From: Candidatus Nanohaloarchaea archaeon | GTDB lineage: Archaea > Nanohalarchaeota > Nanosalinia > Nanosalinales > Nanosalinaceae | Direction: 5' to 3' | Length of the DNA: 47,232 bases | Assembly (NCBI GenBank): GCA_042217585.1 | Contig: JBDGSJ010000008.1 | Span: 1 to 47,232 of the forward strand | Shown: positions 2,338 to 19,547 of the stretch, one piece after another | Position numbering within the stretch: position 1 is the stretch's first letter | Layout: every line of letters begins with the position of its first letter | The notes under the pieces: generated by a model | The model's input: only the letters and a program-made list of their open reading frames with translations | Told to the model about the DNA's origin: nothing | Database searches by the model: none | Position numbers and translations under genes: made by a program

Positions 2338-3279
2338 TCACTCCCCCACTATTCCCTCGTCCTTGACCTTGAAGACCGCCTCGCCCTCGGGCATGTAGGG
2401 GGAGTCGACGAGTCTTGCGATCCTCTTGTCCTTCTTGGACTTCCTCAGGTAGATCCTGATGGCGGAGTTGTGGGCCACGATGTGGCCTCCGATCGCCTTC
2501 GTGGGGTCCCCGAACATCTGGTCCGGGTTGGACATGACCTGGTTCGTGACCAGGACCGCGGCGTTGTGGGAGTTCGCCAGCCTCAGCAGCTTGTTCATGT
2601 GCTTGTTGAGCTTCTGCTGTCTCTTTGCGAGTTCTCCACGGCCGACGTAGTCGGACCTGAACTGTGAGGTCAGGGAGTCGACCACGATCAGACCTATGTC
2701 GTTTTCCTGGCAGATGCTCTGCGCCTCCTCCGCGAGAAGCATCTGGTGGTCCGAGTTGAACGCCCGTGCGACGTGGATGTTCTCCAGCGCCTCATCAACG
2801 TCCATCCCCCGGGCTTCGGCCATCTGCTCTATCCTGTCGGGTATGAAGGTGTCCTCGGTGTCGATGTAGACCGCTCCCTTGTCCAGACCTCCTTCTCCCT
2901 CCGGTAGCTGGACGTTCACGGCAAGCTGGTGTGCTATCTGTGTCTTAGCCGATCCGTACTCTCCGTAGACCTCTGTTATGGCCTGAGTCTCGATTCCTCC
3001 TCCGATTATTTCGTCGAAGTCTTCGCAGCCGGTGGTTATCCGGCCCATGTTCTCTCTTGTCTCGTACTTGTCCTTGGCGCTCTCGAATCCAAGGTCCAGC
3101 TGCTGTCTCGCCGATGTTATTATCCCCTGCGCCTTCTTCTCGCCGAGGTCCGCCACTTCCGCGAGCTCTCCGGCGCTCATCGTCGCTATGGACATCAGTT
3201 CGTCGTATCCTGCGTCCCTCAGCTTTTCGGCTGTTTTTCCTCCCACGCCCTTGATGTCCTCGAGTTCTTTCTCAGACAT
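2338..3279 (-). CDS. radA: DNA repair and recombination protein RadA
   Basis: N-terminal HhH '[12 protein letters not shown]', Walker A 'GEYGSAKT', 'YIDTEDTF', '[10 protein letters not shown]', '[12 protein letters not shown]', 'RIARLVDSP'. Confidence 0.97.
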
Positions 3280-3283
3280 TTTA

Positions 3284-4276
3284 TCATACCTCCATTATCT
3301 CGAGCAGGTCCTCGATCTGGTCCTCGACCTCGACCCTCTCGAGTTCGTTGCATATCATCTCTATCCTTCCGAAGTAGTCGTTGTACCGGGTCCTTCCCTC
3401 TATCTCCAGTTCCTGTCCCAGCGCTTCCTCCGCGGCCTTCTCTATACCGTCCTGGTCGCCCTCCTCGACGACCTCCTCGTCTATATCGAGTATGTCGCGT
3501 GCCTGCGGTCCGAAGAAAACTATCCTTATGTTGCCGGTCCCGTCGTCCAGCACTCCTGATATCGCGAGCCTGTTCTCAGGGTCCTCGACCTCCTTGCCCT
3601 CGTCGGTGAGGTAGTCTCCTTCCTCGGATTTCCTGACGGTCGCACCGGTCTCCGGGTCGACCTTGTAGAACGGGTTGTTGGTGTACACCGCCATCAGCAT
3701 TCCCTGGACTCTGTAGGTAGTGTTCTCGCTGACGACCTCTCTTATGTCGACCTCGTCGGGCTCGAAGCTCTCCACGCTGGCGACGTCGTCCTCGTCGGCC
3801 ATCTTGACCTGCGCCTCGTCGCCGAGCCTGAGCTCCGCGTTGCCCTGGTTGTCCTCTATGGAGTACGCGCCAGCGATCTCTATAGCGTCTCCCTCATCGA
3901 TCTTCTCCGCGATCTCGGTCTGTTCGTCCCAGAGGGTGACTCTTATCGTCCCTGATTCGTCCCCAAGGACGATGTTCTGGACCTTTCCCTCCTCGTCTTC
4001 ATCGTCCCTCTCGAAGGTGTTCGCGTCCATTATGTTGACTACGCGGGCCTTCAGGTGGACCTTCCGCATATCGGGAACTATGTTCTCTATCTGCAGGTCC
4101 TCGGCCTCTGATTCCGAGATCTGGACGCCGTGCTCCTTCGCGACGAGGTGGACCGCTCCCTCCTCGGAGACCAGTCCCTCGAACTCGTCCATCTTTTCCT
4201 CTACCTTGTCCCTAACGTCTTCTTCCTCGAGTTCGGATTCCTCGACGATCTTCTCGATTATGTCGTCGGCGTCCAT
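3284..4276 (-). CDS. rpa: Replication protein A (OB-fold ssDNA-binding protein)
   Basis: N-terminal '[18 protein letters not shown]', OB folds '[15 protein letters not shown]' and '[14 protein letters not shown]'. Start moved to ATG 4276; ends 4 bp before radA. Confidence 0.85.
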
Positions 4277-4370
4277 AAGAAAGAACTGGCTGGAAGACTT
4301 AAATCCTCTTTCATTTGGGTCTTTACCGCATTTCGGCGAGGTCCCTGGCGGCTGCAAAAAAATTGAAGAG

Positions 4371-4571
4371 CTATTTCAGGGCTTCTTCTATATCCTCTGC
4401 TCTCACTGTCTTTCTGCCGGCCTCTTCCGCCACGGCAACCGCCTCTTCGGCTACATCGCCGGCGAATATCTCCAGTATGTTGCCCAGAGACTCGGCGCTG
4501 TCCTCTGATACTCTTTTTTCTCCTTCCTGTTTTATCATGCTCTTCATTTTGGAGATGGAGAATTCATCCAT
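4371..4571 (-). CDS. Archaeal histone (divergent, acidic paralog)
   Basis: Histone fold 'RVSEDSAESL...AGRKTVRAEDIEEA'; GGTGA RBS upstream of ATG 4571; T-run downstream. Confidence 0.88.
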   Translation of the reverse strand: MDEFSISKMKSMIKQEGEKRVSEDSAESLGNILEIFAGDVAEEAVAVAEEAGRKTVRAEDIEEALK

Positions 4572-6983: not shown

Positions 6984-9749
6984 ATGCTGCCGGAAGAGAG
7001 CCTTGAGAGAGCCCGGGAGGAGACCGCGGACTGGGAGGAAGAGATAGAGGAGAAGATATACGCACGCGGCAAGCAGATAGAGTACGGGTACGGCGGCGCA
7101 CTCGAGAGCGACCGCACCCTCAGACTGCCGCACGAGATAGATGACCAGTCCAACTGCCACGAGCAGGGTCTCTTCATCTACTCCCTCGCCAAAGCCGCGG
7201 GGAAGGACCCGAGGTTCCTCAGGCTCCAGCAGTCAGGCACCTGGCACGCCGCAGTTGACGTCGAATCAGGGGACGGAAGAGTCCTCATCGACCCCTACGC
7301 CGATACCTTCGGACCCGTAAAGTACGAGGACCAGAGGATAGAGGTCGAGGACAACGACCTCACCGCCAGGACGGAGAGATCGTTCCGCAAGGTCAAACAG
7401 CTGTCAGAGGAGGAGTTCATGGAGGAGGCCGAGGTCCTGAGGCAGGACCTCGTATCCATGATAGAGGACGGGCAGAGGATCAACGCCGACCTCGACATCT
7501 CAGAAGACGTTCTAAGGACCTCGGACATGGTGAAGATAAACGACGAGGAGAGGGCGCTGGAGAGGACCGTCAAGGCCGACATACTCGCAGGTTACCGGGA
7601 CCCCAACGCCAAGGTCCTGAGACCCTTCGACGAGGAAGGAGGACTGGAGGGGAGGACCGAGGTCTTCCTCGATGTCACGGGGAGCGACTGGGCCCACACC
7701 TACGGCGAGGCGGTCCTCGCGAAGAGAAAGGACGGAGAGCTCGAGGTTAACGACTCCCTCGGATCCCCCGCCAGGGAGAACATGGCGAAGAGGATGAAGT
7801 ACAGGGAACTCCGGGACGGCTCGAAATTCCTGTACGACAGGGAGGAAAGAGAGGAGTTCATACAGCGGAAAAGAGAAGAGACCAGGGACCTGAAGGAAGG
7901 TCCGCCCGCGCTCCACGACTACGTCATCGAGAGACTGTTCTACGGGAGCGTTTTGAGCGAGGCCCGGGAGGAGGACGTCGAGAGAGAAAGACAGAGGAGG
8001 CTCGACTGGCTGAAATTCCTGGAAGAGCACGAGGTCGAGGTCCCGGACCAGGAGGAGGCCGCCGAGAAAGTGCCCGAGTACATACAGATACACGAGGAGA
8101 TGCTGGAAGAGGCCTCCGGCTCCGGGGAAGAGCTGGAGAAGATGGAGGAGGACCTCGAGGGAGGTCTCGAGGCACGCAAAGAGTACGAGGTGGAGGAGGT
8201 CCTCGGCGAGATAGAGGAGGCAGGCCTCTCAGAGACCTACGACGAGATGGCGGACTGCTTCAGGGAGCTCTACGAAGCGGATGAACTGGAAAGAGAGGAC
8301 GTCAGGGAGCTGGACCGGTACGGCGCACTCCTGCTGGTCGAGGACGGGATGATGGACCGGTTCGACGCACTCCTCTGCGACCTCCAGTCAGAGAGGGACG
8401 GGGAGATAGCAGAGTTCATAGGCGACTACAGGGAGGCGACCCGTCAGACCATGAGGGAGGTCCGGTCCCAGAAAGCCCAGGCCTTCATCTACGAGTGGGA
8501 GTTCAGCGAGGAGGAAGACGAACTCAGGTTCGAGATGAAGAACACGGACAACATGCTTTCACCCCACGACAGCCACGTGGTGGCCGCCTTCGAGCTCGAT
8601 GAGCTGGGACGGCTCGAGGGAAGAAGGATGGAGGCCTTCGACACGATGGAGGGAGTGGACGAGAAGTACACCTTCCTCGAAACCGAGGTCGAGGACTTCC
8701 AGGGTATCGATCTCGAGATGTTCCAGGACATGGCGATGGAGAACATGGAAGAGGTGCTGGACAGGAAGAACCTCGTCGCCCCGGAACCCCACACCGACAG
8801 GGACCTCCTCGACAAGAACCTCGAGTACCTCGCGCTCTCGCCGACCGCGGAACTGGTCCAGAGACACCAGTCAGGCAACCTGGAGGAACTCCCCGATGAA
8901 CTCCCGATATACTTCACCGAGGAAGACCTTGAGGATTTCCACGAAAAGATGGTGAGACAGGAGGAGTGGATAAGGGACTCCGAGTTCCTGAGACCGGCGT
9001 GGAGAGAGAAAGCCAGGAAAACCCTCGAGAACTTCGGGGAGATAGAGGAGGGGTCCAGGGAATGGTACCTCGCCCTCGAACAGAACAGGATAATGGGTAT
9101 GCACCTCAACGGCCAGAAGGACGAGGTCAGGGACCTCGCCCGCGAAAGGTACGGCTCAAAGGAGGAGATGTACCGGGAGTACATGACCCGGCACCACGGA
9201 CTCCTGAGGACAGGCCTCCAGAACGGCGACGGACCCGCGATAGCCAGCGCGATGCTCAACCGGGTCAGGGAGGGAAAGAAGATGAAGATCCCCGACCGGG
9301 ACAGGGTCAGGGAGTTCGCGGAGGAGAACGACTTCACCGAGATACTCGAACTGGACCGCGCCATCAGCGAGGGAGACCAGGAGGAGGCACTGGATAAACT
9401 CTCACATCTGGACCGGATGGAGGAGAGGATACAGGACGACTACCAGAGGAAGGCACTCAGGGACTCCATGAAACACTTCAGGCAGAGGATACTGAGAGGG
9501 GGGTCCGTGGAAACGGACCTCTCACCCTCGACAGGGATGGGGGAAGAGCCGGAGAAAGGTGTGGACGTGACAGCGCAGGGGGACGGGAACCAGATGCCCG
9601 AACCCGTGGACCTCAGCGATCTCTTCAGCCCTCCAGCCACCGCGGACAACTCACATGAACTCCAGGACTCGGAACTGGTGGAGAAGCTGAAGGAGGCCGC
9701 CGAACACCTGGACTCGTACCGCCACCTCGGCGACCTCTCCAGGGAATGA
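6984..9749 (+). CDS. 921-aa protein with an N-terminal transglutaminase-like (Cys-His-Asp) domain
   Basis: 'SNCHEQGLFIYSLAKAAG...WHAAVDV...LIDPY' has the C/H/D order and spacing of the transglutaminase-like superfamily; the remainder is acidic and helical. Confidence 0.75.
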   Translation: MLPEESLERAREETADWEEEIEEKIYARGKQIEYGYGGALESDRTLRLPHEIDDQSNCHEQGLFIYSLAKAAGKDPRFLRLQQSGTWHAAVDVESGDGRVLIDPYADTFGPVKYEDQRIEVEDNDLTARTERSFRKVKQLSEEEFMEEAEVLRQDLVSMIEDGQRINADLDISEDVLRTSDMVKINDEERALERTVKADILAGYRDPNAKVLRPFDEEGGLEGRTEVFLDVTGSDWAHTYGEAVLAKRKDGELEVNDSLGSPARENMAKRMKYRELRDGSKFLYDREEREEFIQRKREETRDLKEGPPALHDYVIERLFYGSVLSEAREEDVERERQRRLDWLKFLEEHEVEVPDQEEAAEKVPEYIQIHEEMLEEASGSGEELEKMEEDLEGGLEARKEYEVEEVLGEIEEAGLSETYDEMADCFRELYEADELEREDVRELDRYGALLLVEDGMMDRFDALLCDLQSERDGEIAEFIGDYREATRQTMREVRSQKAQAFIYEWEFSEEEDELRFEMKNTDNMLSPHDSHVVAAFELDELGRLEGRRMEAFDTMEGVDEKYTFLETEVEDFQGIDLEMFQDMAMENMEEVLDRKNLVAPEPHTDRDLLDKNLEYLALSPTAELVQRHQSGNLEELPDELPIYFTEEDLEDFHEKMVRQEEWIRDSEFLRPAWREKARKTLENFGEIEEGSREWYLALEQNRIMGMHLNGQKDEVRDLARERYGSKEEMYREYMTRHHGLLRTGLQNGDGPAIASAMLNRVREGKKMKIPDRDRVREFAEENDFTEILELDRAISEGDQEEALDKLSHLDRMEERIQDDYQRKALRDSMKHFRQRILRGGSVETDLSPSTGMGEEPEKGVDVTAQGDGNQMPEPVDLSDLFSPPATADNSHELQDSELVEKLKEAAEHLDSYRHLGDLSRE

Positions 9750-9788: not shown

Positions 9789-9917
9789 GACCCGAGAGTG
9801 TTCGCATCTCCTGAACAGTAATGTGTTCGAGAATATCGAACAAACCAATTACTTAAGAACCTTTTGTTGTGGTCAGTCGGTGAATCCAGCCTGATGAGTG
9901 TTGAGTCTGGTCGAACA
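9789..9917 (+). repeat. Left arm of a diverged inverted repeat, with three TGTT-N11-AACA palindromes
   Basis: TGTTCG-catctcc-TGAACA 9799-9817; TGTTCG-agaatat-CGAACA 9824-9842; TGTTGA-gtctggt-CGAACA 9899-9917. Collinear with the reverse complement of 10797-10928. Confidence 0.8.
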
Positions 9918-10006
9918 ATCTTTCTCTCCACCGGTTTTTCGCGGTTCTCCGGCTTCCACGGCCAACATAATTAGGGATCGAGAAGAAATTTGGTTACAGA
10001 AGTACG

Positions 10007-10485
10007 ATGGCAGACAGAAAGGATGAGGAGAGCGCTATAAGGAGGATCGAACAGAGGGCCACGGACTCGGAGAAAAGCCTGAAGAAGATGATAGAGGGCC
10101 TGGAGAAGGAGAAAGACAAGCACGAGAGGCTGATGAAGGAGAACGAGCAGATCCTCCAGCAGCTCCGTGAATCCTTGACGTCGTGAGGGACATGGAGAAG
10201 ATAGGCGAGCACCTCGAGAAGACCGCAGAGAAGGTCCGCAGGGGGCAGCCCGGAGCCACGAAAGGGATAGAGAAGGACCTCAAGAGCCTGAAGAAGGACG
10301 TCAAGAAGTTCAAGAAACAGATGCAGCAGATACTCCAGGAGCTCCGCGACACGCGCCGTGGTCTTGAGGAGGAACAGGAGATAGAGAAGAAACTGGAGAA
10401 GATAGAGAACCACCTCGAGGAAAACCTCCAGGAGCTCAGGAAAAGAGAGAAACAGATCCGGGATATGGAGAGGGAAGTCAGGTGA
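10007..10485 (+). pseudogene. Coiled-coil protein gene split by a single-base frameshift near 10170 (or a sequencing error)
   Basis: ATG 10007 frame reads MADRKDEE...QILQQLRE and stops at 10186. Adding one A at CGT GA|ATC joins it to ILDVVRDMEKIGEH...EREVR (stop 10485), giving a continuous 159-aa heptad protein. Confidence 0.7.
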
Positions 10486-10498
10486 GGAACACCAGAAC

Positions 10499-10676
10499 TC
10501 TCGTAACAAAGAAGGTATAACAGGAACGAGTGAATCGGTGAATTCCTCAGGAGGTCGCGAAGATATACCTCCTTTATTATATGGTGTATCTTTCTCGATT
10601 ACCCTTGTTGAAGCACCAAGGATGTTGCAAGAACCACGTTTCCCGCATTCTCGGATAAAGGTCCTTTGTTAAGAGA
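10499..10676. repeat. Three copies of a 22-bp motif (reference ATATACCTCCTTTGTTAAGAGA)
   Basis: Matches to the copy at 17449-17470: 10499-10520 on the minus strand (19/22), 10563-10584 (17/22) and 10655-10676 (19/22). Confidence 0.8.
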
Positions 10677-10719
10677 GGTTTCTCGAGTTTTCGCTCAAAG
10701 GCTCCCTGGATGGCAGGGA

Positions 10720-10928
10720 TGTTCTCTCAGAGTCAACACTCACGAGGTCCTTCTCTGGTCGAAAGCTGCTCGACCTCCCGCCCAGGGGTCGATGGGTGTT
10801 CACATCCGCCAAACACTCGTCAGACTCTTATTTACCGTAGAATGAAAACATAAGGAATTAAAGAGAGTAGTGTGTTCGTCCGGAACGAACATATCTGTGT
10901 TCGCTCTGTCTCAACAGTCTCAGGGGTC
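10720..10928 (-). repeat. Right arm of the inverted repeat region, with four TGTT-N11-AACA palindromes
   Basis: TGTTCT-ctcagag-TCAACA 10720-10738; TGTTCA-catccgc-CAAACA 10797-10815; TGTTCG-tccggaa-CGAACA 10873-10891; TGTTCG-ctctgtc-TCAACA 10898-10916. Confidence 0.8.
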
Positions 10929-10957
10929 GCGTGAGTTTCCCTGAGAGCGAGCGGCTT

Positions 10958-11368
10958 TCAGCTTCCGATCCGGTCCAGGAACCGGTCCATCGCTTCCCGT
11001 GGAGAGGGCTCTTCCTCTCCTCCTGTGCCGTTGCTGTAGTTGGCCCTGACCTGGTCCATGAGCTTCTCCCTGTCCGAGGGCTCCTCTACTCTCTTTGCCT
11101 CTCCCGTCTTCCTGTCGTACTCGGCGTCGGCCTTCGGACCGTTGAGGATCCTCTGCTTGCGGGCCTCTCCCTCGAAGTCGTAGTCGAAGCTGTCGTCCTG
11201 GTTGGCTTTGCCGTACTTCTCGTCGTGATAGGTGGGGTCCTCGCGTGAGGTTTCGTCCTCCTCCAGGTCCTGTCTTGTACCTGCCTCGGGTCCCTGGTCC
11301 AGTTTCACGTTCATGGTTTCCCGGCCGGACCCGGAGTCTCCGTTCCGTACGATGTTCTTGTTTTCCAT
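10958..11368 (-). CDS. Hypothetical acidic, probably disordered protein
   Basis: 136-aa D/E-rich ORF with an AT-rich TATA-like element about 25 bp upstream. Confidence 0.7.
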   Translation of the reverse strand: MENKNIVRNGDSGSGRETMNVKLDQGPEAGTRQDLEEDETSREDPTYHDEKYGKANQDDSFDYDFEGEARKQRILNGPKADAEYDRKTGEAKRVEEPSDREKLMDQVRANYSNGTGGEEEPSPREAMDRFLDRIGS

Positions 11369-11384
11369 ATGTCACTGTAAGATA

Positions 11385-11403
11385 ACAACTTTTTTAAAGT
11401 TGT
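11385..11403. promoter_or_regulatory. Perfect inverted repeat overlapping the TATA-like element of a divergent promoter
   Basis: ACAACTTT-ttt-AAAGTTGT between the 11368(-) gene and the ZIP transporter (+). Confidence 0.5.
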
Positions 11404-11427
11404 CGTCTTTTCCGGACCTTCATAACT

Positions 11428-12195
11428 GTGGGATATCCATACTGGGTCGTGTCAGTCGATCTCTACATAATGGCGAGCGTGCTGGTCTCCGGTCTCGTGT
11501 CCGGTGTGGGAGCGTTCTTTCTGGTACTGGGGGAGGATTCGATGGACCGCCTTGTCCACTTCCTCGTGGCTCTTTCCGCGGGCGCGATGTTCGGGGGAGC
11601 GTTCATACACGTCCTGCCTCGTTACGCATCGGTGTTCGGTATGGATCACCTGGCGGGCCTCCTGATAGCGCTTTCGATAGCTTTCTCGTACCTCCTTGAA
11701 GAGGTCCTCCACTGGCACTGCCATCACACGGACCATGACGTGAAACCCTACAGCTACATGGTGGTGGTAGGTGACAGCATACACAACGTGATAGATGGGG
11801 TCCTGATAGCCTCCAGCTACTACGTATCGGTCCCCGCGGGGCTGGCTGTGACCTTGGCGGTGATGATCCACAAGCTCCCGAAGGAGCTCGGCGACTTCGG
11901 GGTCCTTGTAAACGGAGGTTTCTCACGGCTCAGGGCGCTGGAGTTCAACCTCGCGGTGAACTTCTTTGCGCTCCTCGGGGCTTTCCTCGTTGTCTTGATG
12001 TCCTCGGTCCGGGGAGTGAACGCAGTCCTGATACCGCTCGCGGTCGGTAACTTCGTCTACGTGGCGGGTTCGGACCTTCTCCCCGAGATAAAGCACAAGG
12101 AGGTGAGGGGGAAGGTCCTCCACACCGCTCTGTTCCTGACAGGTATAGCGATGATGTACGGCGTGGTCCTCCTGAAGGGTTTCATCCCTCTGTGA
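11428..12195 (+). CDS. ZIP-family zinc/metal transporter
   Basis: 'ALSAGAMFGGAFIHVLP', His loop 'HWHCHHTDH', 'GDSIHNVIDG', 'HKLPKELGDFGVL', 'YVAGSDLLPE'. Start uncertain (11428, 11449 or 11470). Confidence 0.9.
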   Translation: MGYPYWVVSVDLYIMASVLVSGLVSGVGAFFLVLGEDSMDRLVHFLVALSAGAMFGGAFIHVLPRYASVFGMDHLAGLLIALSIAFSYLLEEVLHWHCHHTDHDVKPYSYMVVVGDSIHNVIDGVLIASSYYVSVPAGLAVTLAVMIHKLPKELGDFGVLVNGGFSRLRALEFNLAVNFFALLGAFLVVLMSSVRGVNAVLIPLAVGNFVYVAGSDLLPEIKHKEVRGKVLHTALFLTGIAMMYGVVLLKGFIPL

Positions 12196-12232
12196 ATCAG
12201 GAATTTGCCAGGTAACTTTCGGAGAGGGTTGT

Positions 12233-13297
12233 CTAGATAAAGTCCTTCACGGTCTCGAAGAACGATTTGTCCTGCTTCTTTTTCTCTCGGTACTTCTCGA
12301 AGAACTCGCGGTCCTCCTCATCGGTTTCTTCGGGTATGTCGACGTCGATCTTCACGTAAAGATCTCCGTAGCCTCTTCTGCCTGGCATCCCCTTCCCGCG
12401 GAGCCTGAGGACCTGGCCGGGCTGGCTTCCCTCCGGTATGTCCACCTTTATCTCGCCGTCTGGATGAGGTATCTCTGCCTCGGCGCCGAGGACCGCGTCG
12501 CCGATTCCGACGGTGACTGTCGTGTATAGGTCGTTTTCCCGTCTCTCAAGCGAGTCGTGGTCCTGTATCATCACGACGGCATACAGGTCTCCGGCGTTCC
12601 CGTTCCTGTCCTCGTGTCCCTTGCCTCTCAGCCTCATCTTCTGGCCGTCCCGGACGCCCTTCGGGACCTCGAAGCTGATAGTTTCTTCCTTCTCGATCAC
12701 GCCTTCTCCGCTGCACCGTGAGCATTTTACCTCCGGTATCTGTCCGGTTCCTCCGCATTCAGGGCATTCCGTGACTTTCTGTGCGCGACCGAGCGGGGTC
12801 CTCTGGACCTGCCTCACGCGTCCCTCTCCGCCGCATTCGGTGCATGTTGTCGTCTGTCCGTCTTCTGCACCGCTTCCGCCGCAGTCCGGGCATCTCTTCT
12901 TTCTGCTGACGTCGTAGGTTTTCTCGACTCCGTTATAGGCTTCCTCAAGGGATATATCGACCTTTATCCTGAGGTTTTCGCCTCCTCTTTCTCTTCTTCG
13001 TCCGCCCCCGCCGAATATCTGCTCGAAGATGTCCTTGAAGTTGGATGCGGCTCTTCTCTGGCCTCTCTCAGCGTGACCTTCTACGCCCTGCTTGCCGAAC
13101 TGGTCGTACTTCTTCCTTTTCTCCTCGTCCGAGAGGACGTCGTAGGCCTTGTTTATCTTCTTGAACTTCTCCTCGTCTGACTCTTCAGAGTTGGAGTCGG
13201 GGTGGTATCTCTTCGCCTTCTCCCTGTACGCCTTCTTTATCTCCTCCTGGCTGGCGTCCTCGGATACACCGAGCAGTTCGTAGTACTCCTTGGCCAT
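12233..13297 (-). CDS. dnaJ: Chaperone DnaJ
   Basis: J domain with HPD and four CxxCxGxG repeats; start moved to ATG 13297 (MAKEYYELLGV). Confidence 0.96.
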   Translation of the reverse strand: MAKEYYELLGVSEDASQEEIKKAYREKAKRYHPDSNSEESDEEKFKKINKAYDVLSDEEKRKKYDQFGKQGVEGHAERGQRRAASNFKDIFEQIFGGGGRRRERGGENLRIKVDISLEEAYNGVEKTYDVSRKKRCPDCGGSGAEDGQTTTCTECGGEGRVRQVQRTPLGRAQKVTECPECGGTGQIPEVKCSRCSGEGVIEKEETISFEVPKGVRDGQKMRLRGKGHEDRNGNAGDLYAVVMIQDHDSLERRENDLYTTVTVGIGDAVLGAEAEIPHPDGEIKVDIPEGSQPGQVLRLRGKGMPGRRGYGDLYVKIDVDIPEETDEEDREFFEKYREKKKQDKSFFETVKDFI

Positions 13298-13537
13298 CGC
13301 ATCAAAACCGGTGTCTGGAAATGTTTTAAGAGTGAAAGTCCTTGTCCTCCACTGCGTCGTCGCCGGGCGCGTCAACGTCGACCGTGGTGTCGGCCGGTGA
13401 ATCCGCGCTGTCGTCATCCAAGACTGCCGCTACATTCAGGGAAACTGTCAGAGTCTTCGTCTGGTCCCGACGTCCCTGAGCTTCTCGATGCTTAGTGCCA
13501 TTATAACGGTGAAGTCCGGGAAAAACCGGGGGAGGGA

Positions 13538-15427
13538 TTACTCCTCCTCTTCGTCGTCTACCTCCTCGTAGTCCGCGTCGACGACGTCCTCTCCGGACCC
13601 GGGGTTTCCGCCGCCCATGTTCATGTTCTGGGCTGCCTGCTGGATGTCCTCGGGGTCCATATTGGAGGGGTCGAATCCCTGTGGTCCGCCCTCGCCGCCG
13701 TAGATCTCCTTTCCTATCTCCTGGATCTCTTCCTCCAGCTTCTCAACGGCGTCCTCGAGCTCTTCTTTGTCTTCAAGCTCTGCGTCCTCACGGACCTCGC
13801 GGACCTCGTCGATCGCGTCCTCTATGGATTCAATCACTTCGTCGTCGACCTTGTCTCCGTGTTCCTCTATCTGGTCCTCTGCCTGGGAAACCAGATGGTC
13901 GGCACGGTTCTTTGTCTCTACGAACTCGCGGCGTTTCTGGTCTTCCTCGGCGTGCTTCTCGGCTTCTTCCTTCATCTCCTCTATCTCTTCCTCGTCAAGC
14001 CTTGAGGCCTCGTCGATCGTGATGGAGGCTTCTTCCCCGCTCTGCTGCTCCTTCGCGGAGACGTTGAGTATGCCGTCGGCGTCGATCTCGAAAGTGACCT
14101 CGATCTGCGGCTGTCCGGCGGGCGCCGGCGGGATGCCCTGGAGGTTGAACTGTCCGAGGGACTTGTTGTCCTTCGCCATCTCCCTTTCTCCCTGCACGAC
14201 GTGTACCGTGACCGCGGTCTGGTTGTCCTGTGCGGTCGTGAAGGTCTTGGACTCTTCCGCGGGTATCGTGGTGTTCTCTTCTATCAGGGTCTCGGTGAGC
14301 CCGCCCTTGACCTCTACTCCGAGGCTGAGCGGTGCGACGTCAAGGAGCAGTAGGTCGTCCATGTCCCCGGAGATGCTGCCGGCCTGGATCGAGGCACCCA
14401 TGGCTACCGCCTCGTCGGGGCTGACGCTCTGGTCCGGCTTCATGCCGGTTATCGCCTGTACGTGCTCGCGGACCGCCGGAACCCTGGTCGTTCCCCCGAC
14501 CAGTATCACGTCGTCTATCTCCGACTTGTCGATACCTGCGTCATCGATCGCCTTCTCGGTCGGCTCGGTGGTCCTCTGGATCAGGTCCTCGACGAGGTCC
14601 TCGAACTTCGACCGGGTCAGCTCGTAGTCGATGTTGTACGTGTCTTCGTCGTCCTGGTAGATGAAAGGTATGTTGATATTCGTGTTCTCCCGGGAGGAGA
14701 GCTCCTTCTTGGCCTCCTCGGCCTTCTCCCTTATCCTCTGGAGGGATTCGTCGTGCTCGGAGAGGTCGATCCCGTTCTCGTCCTCGAACTTCTCGAGCAC
14801 CCAGTCGACGATCCGCTGGTCGAGGTCGTCTCCTCCGAGTTCATTGTCTCCCTCTGTGGACTGGACCTCGTAGACGCCGTCACCCATCTCGAGGACGGTG
14901 ACGTCGAAGGTCCCTCCTCCGAAGTCGTAGACCAGCACGGTCTTCTCGGACTCGTCGTCGAGCCCGTAGGCAAGGGCCGCGGCGGTCGGCTCGTTCAGTA
15001 TCCTTTCCACCTCGAGCCCGGCGATCTCGCCCGCGTCCTTGGTGGCCTGTCTCTGCGTGTCGTCGAAGTGCGCGGGGACCGTGATGACCGCTTTCTCGAC
15101 CTCGTCGCCCAGCTTCTCCTCGGCGTCGGTCTTCAGCTTCTGGAGGATCATCGAGGAGATCTCCTGCGGCGTGTAGTCTTCGCCCTCGAGCTCTACCTCG
15201 TAGTCCTCACCCATGTGTCTCTTTATCGATTTGACGGTGTTCTCCTCGTTCGTTATCATCTGGTTCTTCGCCGGCTTCCCGACGAGCCGCTCACCGTCGT
15301 CGAACGCGACTATCGACGGCGTCACGCGGTCTCCCTCCCTGTTCTCCAGGATTTTTGGTTCTCCGTCCTCTACTGCTGCGATTGCGCTTCTCGTCGTTCC
15401 GAGGTCGATCCCGATTATTCTTCCCAT
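13538..15427 (-). CDS. dnaK: Chaperone DnaK (Hsp70)
   Basis: 'IGIDLGTT', 'AVITVPAHF', 'NEPTAAAL', 'DFGGGTFDV', '[13 protein letters not shown]'. Confidence 0.98.
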
Positions 15428-15479
15428 GTTGAAGACACCTGTTTTTGTTGAGGTGATTAAAAATTTTTAAATAGTCCCC

Positions 15480-16076
15480 TCAGATGGCGTAGAACGCGCC
15501 GAGGAGAATCGAGCCGATGTACCCGAGCGCCTGCATAGGGTCCAGCAGGTTCACGACCCGTGGCGAGACCCCTGCGATCCGCGGTCCCGGCGCCGCGACA
15601 CAGTGTAGAGGGGCAAAGTTCTTCCTCCAGTCGACAAGGTAGAAATCTCCTCCCTCCGAAACAGAGGTCTTCCAGCATCCCTGCTTTCTCGACAGTCCGT
15701 CCCTGCTGAACTCGTCCATGGGGTAGAAGTCGTGCCTGGTGTCGAAGATGTAGCTCCGTCTCGGCGGGAGGCCGCCGTCTCCCCTCTCTATCCTCACCGG
15801 GGCCCTGTAACCTATCCCTGTCCTCGAGGTCACGTTCCATCCCTCTCCCCGGAGTTCCTCCAGCTCGTCCAGATCCGTGGAGTTCAGGGGCCTCAGCTCC
15901 GGGTCCTCCGACGAGAAGTTGGTCCTTCCCAGCCTGAACTCCTCCGGCAGTTCTCCGCCGCAAAGCCCTTCCCCGCAGTGCATCACGTAGGTTATCTCGC
16001 TGATGGCTACGCTGGTCGATGATGCGGCTCCCGCCAGCATCAGGACCGCCAGGGGAAGCAAGAGGAGCTTTTCCAT
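15480..16076 (-). CDS. Secreted or membrane-anchored hypothetical protein
   Basis: Signal peptide 'MEKLLLLPLAVLMLAGAASS', four Cys and a C-terminal hydrophobic helix. Confidence 0.7.
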   Translation of the reverse strand: MEKLLLLPLAVLMLAGAASSTSVAISEITYVMHCGEGLCGGELPEEFRLGRTNFSSEDPELRPLNSTDLDELEELRGEGWNVTSRTGIGYRAPVRIERGDGGLPPRRSYIFDTRHDFYPMDEFSRDGLSRKQGCWKTSVSEGGDFYLVDWRKNFAPLHCVAAPGPRIAGVSPRVVNLLDPMQALGYIGSILLGAFYAI

Positions 16077-16103
16077 ATCTTGTTTTCCGTGGAGCCGGTT
16101 TAA

Positions 16104-16607
16104 TCAGTTTTCTTCATCGTTCTTCCCGACGACGACCTCGGATTCCCTCAGGACCTCGTCGTTGTACATGTAGCCCTTGCGCTTCTCCCGGACCACCCTG
16201 TTGTGCTCCTCGTGGGTCTCGGTGTCGACCGCCCTGTGGAGGCTGGGGTTGAACTCCTCGCCTTCCGCGTGTATCCTCTCCAGTCCTCTGTCCTGGAGCG
16301 TCTCGTAGAGCTGGTCCGCCACCATCTTGACACCCTTCACGACTCCGGTCTCCTCGTCGGCGGAAGCGATGGCTCTTTCCAGGTTGTCCATCACCTCTAT
16401 CAGCTCTTCCGCCAGCTGCTTCCTGGCGTCCTCCTGCCAGCGCTCCTTCCGGTCCTCTTCACGTTTCCTGTAGTTGTCGAAGTCCGCCTTGACCTTTTTC
16501 GCCTTTTCCTCGGCGTCTTCCTTTTCCTGCTCAAGTCGGCTGACCTTTTCCTCAATCTCTTCAAGTGCCTCGACAAGCTGTTCGCGGGAGAGGTCCTCGT
16601 AACTCAT
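16104..16607 (-). CDS. grpE: Nucleotide exchange factor GrpE
   Basis: 'ADFDNYRKR', 'VMDNLERA', 'GEEFNPSLHRAV', 'KGYMYNDEVLRESEVVV'; start ATG 16607. Confidence 0.95.
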   Translation of the reverse strand: MSYEDLSREQLVEALEEIEEKVSRLEQEKEDAEEKAKKVKADFDNYRKREEDRKERWQEDARKQLAEELIEVMDNLERAIASADEETGVVKGVKMVADQLYETLQDRGLERIHAEGEEFNPSLHRAVDTETHEEHNRVVREKRKGYMYNDEVLRESEVVVGKNDEEN

Positions 16608-16645
16608 CAGTGACCTAAACGTCGTCAAATCTTTTAACAGGTAGC

Positions 16646-17407
16646 TCAGAACCGTTTCGCGATGAAGTCCTTTATCCTGCCCGGTACGAACTTCGCCAGC
16701 CGGGTGATGAAGAAACCGTCCCATCCGATGGAGTACCTCTGGCCAGACCTCTTCTCGGCGATATCCGCAAGTTTCTCCCCGGCCTTATCAGGGCTCATCC
16801 CGCCGAGAGGCTGGTCCAGTCTCTCCCTGCACCAGTCGCCGTAGACAGTCTCCAGGTAGTTCTCCAGGTTCTCGCGTCCTCTCTCGTTGAAACCGGTCCG
16901 GACACCGCCCGGCTCCACGACGACGACATCGACGTCGAACCGTTCCACCTCCATCCGGAGTGCGTCGCTCATAGCCTCGACTCCGTGCTTGCTCGCGGAG
17001 TAAAGGCCCCAGAAAGGCCCCGATTCCTTTCCCGCGACCGACGAGACGTTCACGATCTTCCCGGACCTCTCCCTGAGCATCGGAAGTGACTCCTGTATCA
17101 TGTTCACCATCCCGAACAGGTTGGTCTCGAAGTGGCGCTCCACCTTGTCCATATCCATCTCCTCGACAGGTCCCTGCCTCTGGTAGCCTGCGCAGTTCAC
17201 CAGCACGTCGAACTCCTCCGTGTCGAGGACCTCCGCCACCCTCTCCCTGTCGTAGACGTCTCCCTCGTGGGTCTCCACCTCCTCAGGAAGTTCGTCGAGG
17301 TACTCCTCCTCTATGTCGAAGACGACTACCTCGTGGCCGCGGTCCAGCAGTTCCTCAGCCGCGTTCCGTCCGATCCCGTGTCCTCCGCCCGTTATGAAGA
17401 ACCTCAT
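16646..17407 (-). CDS. Short-chain dehydrogenase/reductase (SDR)
   Basis: 'TGGGHGIG', 'LVNCAG', 'NVSS', catalytic 'YSASK'. Confidence 0.93.
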   Translation of the reverse strand: MRFFITGGGHGIGRNAAEELLDRGHEVVVFDIEEEYLDELPEEVETHEGDVYDRERVAEVLDTEEFDVLVNCAGYQRQGPVEEMDMDKVERHFETNLFGMVNMIQESLPMLRERSGKIVNVSSVAGKESGPFWGLYSASKHGVEAMSDALRMEVERFDVDVVVVEPGGVRTGFNERGRENLENYLETVYGDWCRERLDQPLGGMSPDKAGEKLADIAEKRSGQRYSIGWDGFFITRLAKFVPGRIKDFIAKRF

Positions 17408-17448
17408 GTCAGGGGTTTAGGTCCGGAGCAACATAAACCTGAACCTTG

Positions 17449-17470
17449 ATATACCTCCTTTGTTAAGAGA
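17449..17470 (+). promoter_or_regulatory. 22-bp motif overlapping the start of the winged-helix gene
   Basis: ATATACCTCCTTTGTTAAGAGA; its last A is the A of ATG 17470. Three related copies lie at 10499-10676. Confidence 0.65.
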
Positions 17471-17952
17471 TGTTCATGTCCGAGGATGACCATCCCTTCG
17501 TGGACGAGGACGCGAGGAAGTCGAAAACCCTGGTGACTAAGCACTCCATCGCGATACCGGAGGACGAGCAGAAGTACAGGAAGGGCGACAGGGCCTGGAA
17601 CTGGGAGAAGATAGTGGACCTTTTCTTTCCGCACGAGCAGTCCCCGAAGCGGAACAAGTACGCGAAGATATTCCTGCAGGAGCTGAAGAAGGAGGGCGAA
17701 ATCGACTCTGAAAAACTGAACGCGTTCGATGAATGGGGTCACGAGAAGGGAAAGTCGAACCTGAAGAACAATATACTGCCGAAACTGAGAAGACTTGGCG
17801 TGATCAAGTACGAGTATCTGGAGTATCGAGACCGCAGCGAAGGGTCTCAGGGCCGCCACAAGGTCGTCAAACCTGCCAGGTCCTTCACATCGATACTGGA
17901 CTCTATGGCGAACGGCTGGGCTGCTTTCGAGTCAGCGGCCTTCCAAGATTGA
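17470..17952 (+). CDS. Putative winged-helix DNA-binding protein
   Basis: 'KSNLKNNILPKLRRLGVIKYE...GRHKVVK' resembles a wHTH recognition helix plus wing; more basic than neighbouring proteins. Start 17470 or 17476. Confidence 0.6.
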   Translation: MFMSEDDHPFVDEDARKSKTLVTKHSIAIPEDEQKYRKGDRAWNWEKIVDLFFPHEQSPKRNKYAKIFLQELKKEGEIDSEKLNAFDEWGHEKGKSNLKNNILPKLRRLGVIKYEYLEYRDRSEGSQGRHKVVKPARSFTSILDSMANGWAAFESAAFQD

Positions 17953-18023: not shown

Positions 18024-18140
18024 CTATAGAGTAGTTGCTGGAACTACGTTTGCCTTGGGCGAGACTTCTGGCTGAGTCTTCGCGACTTCCTCGACCTGAG
18101 CTGAGAGCTCAGCTTCGAAGTCCCGGACGTTCGCGTTCAT
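18024..18140 (-). CDS. 38-aa small protein MNANVRDFEAELSAQVEEVAKTQPEVSPKANVVPATTL
   Basis: GAGGTG RBS 7 nt before ATG 18140; TAG at 18026-18024; shorter than anything in the ORF track. Confidence 0.6.
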   Translation of the reverse strand: MNANVRDFEAELSAQVEEVAKTQPEVSPKANVVPATTL

Positions 18141-18204
18141 TCGTTTGCACCTCGTGTTTTGTTTGGTGGTGTACGTGTGTTGTGGTCGCGATCTGGAAGG
18201 CCTG

Positions 18205-18503
18205 AAATGTTCCGGAGATGGGTCCCACCTTGCAAGCAGGACCCATCCTGAGTTCCATCCCCTTACAGGCTCACGCCTGTAGTTCCACAGAGACAGGAGG
18301 AATGGAACTTCCGTGTTGTGTTTGAGTTTTCGCGGTCAACCGTTGACTCCTTTCCGGAGCCAAGGCGTCATCCCGCTTTACTCAGCCAGGAAGTTGATAA
18401 TGGAGAAGTCGGCCTTGGCCTTGGCGTGGTTATAGTTACATCTCACCGGCATCATCAGGGTCCCGGTGAGCCAGGAGGTCTGTTGGACCAAGGCCATTTT
18501 ATC
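18205..18503 (-). ncRNA. Unidentified structured RNA or long structured 5' leader
   Basis: At least six 7-11 bp stems; G-U wobbles and GNRA-type loops fit only the minus strand; TTTATAAA box at 18527-18534. Ends are approximate. Confidence 0.65.
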
Positions 18504-18526
18504 TAACCTAATCTTGTCCGCCGACC

Positions 18527-18534
18527 TTTATAAA
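18527..18534 (-). promoter_or_regulatory. TATA box for the structured RNA
   Basis: TTTATAAA about 30 nt upstream of the first stem on the minus strand. Confidence 0.6.
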
Positions 18535-19349: not shown

Positions 19350-19547
19350 TTACTGGGAAGTCTTCACGTCGTCTGCCTGAACGGTCTTTCTGCCAGCGTG
19401 CTCCGCGTACTTCTTGGCTTCTCGCGCTCTTTCCTCTGCGTAGTCCTCCAGCTCATCCCTGAGCTCTTCTACTGCGTCTTCGGATACGCGTGAAGCACCT
19501 GACTGTTTGATGATTCTCTTGACCGGTGCAAGTGGTAGTTCTGCCAT
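19350..19547 (-). CDS. Archaeal histone (HMf-like)
   Basis: 'MAELPLAPVKRIIK...RVSEDA...HAGRKTVQADDV'; GGAGGTGA RBS and TTTTATAAAA box near 19607-19617. Confidence 0.96.
   Translation of the reverse strand: MAELPLAPVKRIIKQSGASRVSEDAVEELRDELEDYAEERAREAKKYAEHAGRKTVQADDVKTSQ

Follow-up and report, generated by a model that had tools for sequence, protein, structure and literature searches.

A three-site non-coding core and its winged-helix gene in Nanohaloarchaeota: an apparently undescribed protein–DNA system

What links a small cluster of similar sites in non-coding DNA with the start of a winged-helix gene 7 kb away was the question raised by a stretch of 47,232 nucleotides from Candidatus Nanohaloarchaea archaeon (contig JBDGSJ010000008.1 of assembly GCA_042217585.1; this whole stretch is called the window). 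An earlier note on this DNA had described the shared element as a 22-bp, iteron-like motif and had proposed an autoregulated winged helix-turn-helix (wHTH) protein, here w1, acting on the distant cluster, here the core. What the window carries is best read as a nucleoprotein hub on the chromosome of Nanohaloarchaeota, belonging to a protein–DNA system that is real, order-wide and, as it appears, undescribed. A probable operator over the gene's own promoter, with one distant cluster as main target, was supported at the sequence level. The four copies of the 22-mer were confirmed in the sequence; they are listed together with the conserved sites recognised within them (motif 1), the core and the gene, with its open reading frame (ORF).

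10499–10520, minus strand: copy of the 22-mer, 19/22 identical
10563–10584, plus strand: copy of the 22-mer, 17/22 identical
10655–10676, plus strand: copy of the 22-mer, 19/22 identical, 15 of them contiguous
17449–17470: reference copy of the 22-mer, beside the w1 start
10506–10520, minus strand: core site A (motif 1), 55–57 bp from site B in 30/30 complete cores
10563–10577, plus strand: core site B, running into a TATA-like, low-stability patch to 10582
10583–10654: B–C spacer, indel-free, conserved, non-coding
10655–10669, plus strand: core site C (motif 1), dyad centre varied or inverted in relatives
17449–17463, plus strand: motif-1 dyad, likely autoregulatory operator of w1, over a TATA-like box (17446–17453)
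17476–17952, plus strand: w1, winged-helix gene; its frame is open from 17470, with the start probably at 17476

In the assembly scanned (979,871 bases, 38 contigs, 89.7% complete) these four copies were the only matches to the 22-mer at up to five mismatches; among 150 start-proximal 22-mers sampled (of 679), two had at least two further copies at up to three mismatches. What is conserved is a unit of 15 bp, the imperfect palindrome AYAWA-N5-TWTRT (motif 1), rather than an iteron of 22 bp. The TAAGAGA tail of the 22-mer is not preserved at the core in relatives, and an iteron array is not supported because the sites are dyads in mixed orientation. The AT-rich hairpin GATATACC...GGTGTATC that had been drawn around the second copy was preserved in 1 of 33 stretches examined, namely that of the window itself.

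The exact motif-1 pattern was matched 77 times in 31 of 42 genomes (reversed control, 13 matches), and 71 of the 77 lie at the w1 promoter or in the single core cluster; of the other six, three are in virus-like stretches and two in coding frames. Across nine genomes, 1.257 Mb of chromosomal sequence gave two weak matches outside promoter and core. At the gene, a motif-1 dyad stands at most 45 nt from the w1 start in 30/30 loci (reversed in three; control windows, 0/30), the loci fetched being the best-scoring 30 of 35 and the matrix partly trained on them. Beyond the 30 loci, L064 and L107 have altered sites and G012 has none. Orthologues place the ATG 27 nt after the motif-1 site, and the Atlas record begins at residue 3; since the likely start is 17476, the site covers the TATA-like box and not, as first described, the first base of the gene.

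The core measures ca. 170 bp, occurs in single copy per genome and comprises three motif-1 dyads and the TATA-like patch. It was compared in 30 complete cores, which were chosen for holding a match (a virus-like locus and two clusters truncated at contig ends were excluded); the distance from site B to site C was 92 bp in 28 cores and 91 bp in 2. The B–C spacer aligned almost gap-free among relatives; it is not coding (stops in 7–18 of 25 sequences per frame, no synonymous excess), gave no consensus RNA fold and showed a weak periodicity of 10–11 bp; Rfam and ARAGORN found no structured RNA in the window. The patch at site B belongs to the least stable 0.02% of 20-bp windows genome-wide; it is conserved in the family and stands beside a different motif in sister families too. 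In 3 of 24 genomes with both on one contig, the window included, the core is inverted relative to w1. A reading of the reversed motif as a Shine-Dalgarno sequence was rejected: downstream of the core sites there is no conserved ORF. Contig depth had no peak at the core, depth being no stand-in for marker frequency. Some assemblies have a contig break at the core, and such breaks were given no weight. In locus L090 the whole three-site core was found twice (1432–1610 and 2628–2810, 1.2 kb apart), by duplication or assembly error.

The winged-helix fold of w1 was supported by an AlphaFold (AF2) model and by fold matches. The model (mean predicted local distance difference test, pLDDT, 75.9) has one wHTH, at ca. 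residues 43–137, and a long C-terminal helix, the predicted dimer helix. With regard to a likeness to WhiP, RepA or the Orc1 wHTH, the best fold matches, the Fur DNA-binding domain (Z 9.0, root-mean-square deviation 2.1, 77 aligned) and TFE-alpha (Z 8.5), are at generic wHTH level; an alignment scan gave weak generic wHTH matches only, and no Pfam or NCBIfam family and no PDB sequence match was found. The predicted homodimer scored 0.82, a mark reached by 20/30 solved homodimers and 1/23 single chains (best control, 0.17); between runs the contacts agreed to at least 96%, with pLDDT of at least 85, and the models support a w1 dimer. The gene was found in 33/36 same-family genomes (73–88% identity) and, by profile, in 44/49 genomes of the window's family; relatives at 23–35% identity include Altiarchaeota.

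Sister families keep the histone-RPA-radA genes, the flanking motif 2 (see below) and a related core that is without motif 1. There w1 was found in 1/20 genomes, against 44/49 above, and a protein of 121–136 amino acids, w1', in 16/20, against 0/49 in the window's family; G051 is the sole genome with both, its w1 being on a 2.9-kb contig. The profiles of w1 and w1' are homologous (probability 89.8, E 1.8e-6), and the downstream neighbours are the same: histone, often an RNase-H-like exonuclease. A different dyad, GTTGAC-N6-GTCAAC (motif 1'; the pattern was defined after the loci were inspected), stands 48–56 nt before the w1' start in 14/16 loci with upstream DNA and occurs two to five times in sister cores; core and w1' gene are back to back in four loci. 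Across families, motif and protein co-vary at promoter and distant cluster, motif 1 with w1 and motif 1' with w1', as the earlier note had asked to be checked. Because the genomes are related, they do not count as independent cases, and the evidence amounts to a single clean swap; this swap would be difficult to account for if w1 and w1' did not each recognise the motif beside which they occur, and the pairing of w1 with motif 1 and of w1' with motif 1' is considered very probable. Three of 57 w1' homologues are labelled AF_0843 (PF27297), and the same label on the Atlas record (feature score 0.91) is a lead only; through w1', these labels suggest that w1 is a distant relative of the AF_0843 family.

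Outside these families, w1' was found in none of 5 Altiarchaeota genomes, and in another phylum 7 single motif matches stood against 7 control matches (38 genomes). At Altiarchaeota-type loci (L110–L136) the w1 homologue converges on an operon 0.5–2.5 kb downstream, which contains a w2-like wHTH gene in 19/27 loci (w2 being a MarR-like wHTH protein, see below) together with rpoL, csl4-like and KaiC-like genes; by gene order, the w1 and w2 families are thus linked in another lineage as well.

Three virus-like stretches carry motif 1, always in non-coding DNA: a site upstream of a rep-like gene (L059/L249, 2263), paired sites near an AAA ATPase gene (L060, 2516–2608), and paired sites between NTPase and integrase genes, downstream of tRNA-Ser (L063/L250, 12736–12818). 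Two of the three also encode a w2-like wHTH protein. A scan of the viral collection gave no w1 and no paired sites, and phage records gave chance matches only; therefore the virus-like sites are taken as a lead only.

Around the core the following features were located.

9796–9920, plus strand: left promoter module, oriented toward the core, its TATA-like box set among motif-2 sites at 9796, 9821 and 9896
10007–10485, plus strand: variable cargo slot, a coiled-coil gene in two frames (59 + 97 amino acids)
10717–10741: motif-2 palindrome GAGTGTTC-N9-GAACACTC, flanking the core
10794–10919, minus strand: right promoter module, oriented toward the core, with motif-2 sites at 10895, 10870 and 10794
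2338–4568, minus strand: histone-RPA-radA cluster, linked to the core

Motif 2 brackets the core on both sides, has arms of ca. 9–11 bp and a centre of 7 bp, and in the modules is set at 0, +25 and +101 around the TATA box. By this layout the modules are read as promoters facing the core. The nesting of the cluster inside palindrome arms was seen as the earlier note had it, but the arms are two inverted promoter modules of this second motif. Motif 2 was found in 40/49 genomes of the order, almost solely at the core locus and at control level elsewhere; the scattered matches (seven fetched and one in G000) are isolated and mostly within coding DNA. Two candidates for a motif-2 binder were tried: a 68-amino-acid small gene (24/36 family genomes; not found in G000 or in genus g2, whose three genomes retain motif 2) and w2 (60/70 genomes; not found in G000, with a weak unrelated match in the single-contig G010). 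Neither is established, because genomes keeping motif 2 gave no good match. The gene driven by the right module in relatives is not present in the window; a conserved gene of 67–78 amino acids with no known family (L144, 2135–2356, and relatives), which the motif-2 module drives coreward in many of the relatives, was not found in this genome.

The genes that lie between modules and core are replaced by others within genera; the cargo gene has one extra base in one low-depth contig of run X3. Both breakpoints of an inversion between G017 and G030 lie inside the promoter modules. Histone, RPA and radA are regular neighbours of the core; the histone gene of the radA cluster is within ca. 2.5 kb of it in 19/30 loci and is a neighbour in sister families too. 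Two histone genes are in the window (19350–19547 and 4371–4568) and four in the assembly. Directly left of the element is an acidic ORF of 921 amino acids (6984–9749) with no Pfam or NCBIfam match. Convergent with w1 is a family-conserved unit (18024–18534, minus strand) with a TATA box, a leaderless 39-codon ORF (18497–18378), a conserved RNA-like spacer and a Shine-Dalgarno-led 38-codon ORF (18140–18024); the latter starts with ATG in some genomes and with ATC, ATT or ATA in others, and its peptide was found in 24/30 loci. A 9-base tract of the 39-codon ORF could pair with either of two partners, attenuator-like; the unit had no Rfam match.

As to function, the core is tentatively regarded as an origin-proximal, centromere-like anchor to which w1 would bind. 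This reading is drawn from a single-copy, orientation-tolerant, rigidly spaced, non-coding and origin-proximal cluster, and from an apparently autoregulated dimeric binder with almost no other targets. A w1 dimer would in all likelihood bind motif 1, repress its own promoter, keep the level of w1 low and occupy the core; just as probably, a second protein would bind motif 2. The core would probably be a scaffold at the DNA level and not a gene. Further, it might anchor the origin region, or load or stall SMC-ScpAB in place of ParB/parS, and the motif-2 sites might limit transcription running into it. SMC (below the curated cut-off), ScpA and ScpB each gave a match in 5/5 genomes, and ParB_N in 0/5 with the query used; SMC-like frames of ca. 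845–935 amino acids only were found (G000, G001, G010, G017 and G019).

Several observations weigh against such an anchor. No ParA-like ATPase gene or SMC gene adjoins the core, and the strong MinD/ParA-type matches are separated from it by tens of kb or more. Site B is promoter-like, with the site-then-TATA layout seen at the w1' promoter, which fits regulation equally; the virus-like sites would fit regulation or replication equally well. At 27 loci of Altiarchaeota homologues there is neither motif 1 nor motif 2, nor any dyad in common. G012 (79% complete) has w1 with its promoter site lacking, and neither a motif-1 match nor a good motif-2 match in the 80 kb fetched. Binding of motif 1 by w1, core localisation and the segregation role are all inferred from sequence.

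Possible, if rather doubtful, is a regulatory or titration hub, in which w1 would be a repressor of cell state or cell cycle and the core a closely controlled promoter of a short non-coding RNA or a sink for w1; the sink would buffer w1 when the origin region is copied, and viruses would use the site to read the state of the host. In both lineages a TATA-like box directly adjoins site B, the flanking modules look like promoters, the flanking genes mostly point inward (17/24 on the left, 14/21 on the right), and in the virus-like stretches the sites lie between or upstream of genes. However, the two weak matches in 1.257 Mb leave no regulon, site B is followed by neither an ORF nor a conserved RNA fold, and an indel-free 92-bp spacing would seem more rigid than a promoter needs.

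That the cluster is a WhiP-like main origin, as the earlier note would have allowed, was not supported, in view of an Orc1 gene, an origin beside it and the course of the nucleotide skew. Orc1/Cdc6 was found in 36/36 same-family genomes. In G000, orc1 has an AT-rich stretch and origin recognition box (ORB) elements upstream of it, on a contig other than that of the core, and ORB-like elements adjoin orc1 in nine relatives; the elements were recognised by the general ORB consensus, and the general geometry of TATA box and B recognition element (BRE) was assumed. The core lies 18–62 kb from the ORB origin. At four-fold sites (1,023 ORFs, nine genomes) the GC contrast was +0.19 ± 0.04 between origin and core, +0.17 ± 0.02 beyond the core and −0.04 ± 0.02 on the far side of the origin; TA contrast: +0.33, +0.28 and +0.07, respectively. 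The sign of the GC contrast was the same across the core in 8/8 scorable genomes, which argues against a dominant origin or terminus there; the far-side reversal was clear only within the nearest 20 kb and was absent in G001, G006, G010 and G017. The core is very probably not the main origin. In the same nine genomes, genes face the core from both sides, to 60 kb beyond it (coreward against opposite: 146 and 55 kb between origin and core, 243 and 147 kb beyond the core), so that many would meet forks coming from the ORB origin head-on; this bias may reflect a few shared operons.

An auxiliary or conditional origin, or an element controlling initiation, with w1 as a WhiP- or Rep-like initiator, is unlikely. 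It would account for a putative autoregulated binder with inverted sites beside a patch that is about as meltable as the ORB origin (low stability in 40-bp windows: site B patch 0.04%, ORB origin 0.07%), for replication and repair genes nearby, for the four sister loci where the core is back to back with the gene, as oriC3 adjoins whiP, and for a perfect site ca. 65 bp upstream of the rep-like gene in the virus-like contig. On the other hand, an ORB origin and Orc1 are present, a promoter module is as unstable as the patch, and w1 has one wHTH, not a tandem; no skew switch occurs at the core, though an origin that fires only rarely would not show in the skew.

A platform for gene capture or site-specific recombination (integron- or dif-module-like), with motif 2 as the crossover site, is very improbable. 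The cargo beside the core differs within genera, the inversion breakpoints fall in the modules, and arms of ca. 9–11 bp around a 7-bp centre would suit it; but motif-2 centres agree in 2.65 of 7 positions within a genome and in 2.82 of 7 between genomes (17 genomes), so that the matching crossover spacers of dif or att sites are not seen, and no joint at the locus was among the matches listed for three runs. A search with PF00589 in G000, G001, G010, G017 and G019 gave no strong conserved tyrosine recombinase (XerA-like), and none in G000. Chance similarity or an assembly artefact as the source of the copies is already refuted: none of 100 shuffles matched the 22-mer at up to three mismatches, conservation was seen in all 30 complete cores, and a contig from a second sample of the same study spans 9878–11726 without any difference.

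If the anchor is real, the wider picture would be a ParB-independent archaeal centromere in DPANN, a two-protein, multi-site scaffold next to the origin that anchors or loads condensin, its recognition code (the protein along with all of its sites) swapped in place in one family and the scaffold copied by nanohaloarchaeal viruses for maintenance with the host chromosome; this is regarded as doubtful. How an archaeal centromere appears is listed as an open question in PMC5120986, and a named protein, an exact site, a single target and a natural specificity-swap control (w1/motif 1 against w1'/motif 1') make that question directly testable. Even with a regulatory role, the element would be one that is conserved across the order and lies next to the origin. 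The literature searched, with most subscription papers and bioRxiv supplements outside reach, gave no description of the element or of an AF_0843 function or site; in the main text of bioRxiv 10.1101/2025.02.15.638363, neither "motif" nor "intergenic" occurs.

Among known systems, iteron/Rep replicons have an operator on the gene's own promoter and a site cluster of phased direct repeats. The likely operator in 30/30 w1 loci and the core resemble these; in contrast, the core has three dyads, one inverted, with the centre of site C often flipped, and is chromosomal and family-wide. WhiP/oriC3 of Sulfolobus shares a winged-helix protein, repeated sites near its gene and a separate Orc1 origin; according to PMC3607249, WhiP is a crenarchaeal, predicted tandem wHTH protein required for firing, whereas w1 is a single-wHTH protein with sites that are dyads, and the skew does not switch at the core. 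In bacteria, ParB/parS with Smc-ScpAB has origin-proximal palindromic sites as well (PMC11840125); here one rigid cluster replaces scattered sites, and w1, with 158 amino acids, has no CTPase-sized domain. The same paper states that in Thermococcus the loading of Smc-ScpAB is apparently not done by the ParB homologue. SegAB of Sulfolobus has imperfect palindromes at its own promoter, which may be operator and centromere (PMC5120986); no segA-like ATPase gene is in an operon with w1. The system is not a member of WhiP/oriC3, ORB origins, iteron/Rep, ParABS or AspA-ParBA. In AspA-ParB-ParA of Sulfolobus pNOB8, as given in PMC5120986, AspA is a dimeric wHTH protein whose binding site is a palindrome upstream of aspA itself, with a putative centromere. 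No AspA entry was among the fold matches listed for w1, and no parB or parA, as in that system and in ParABS, adjoins the w1 sites; the w1 system is chromosomal, its main cluster lies apart from the gene, and it has a second motif and inward promoters. The dimeric binder with a palindrome of its own, which marks AspA-ParBA and ParABS, nevertheless has its counterpart here in the predicted w1 homodimer and its putative operator dyad.

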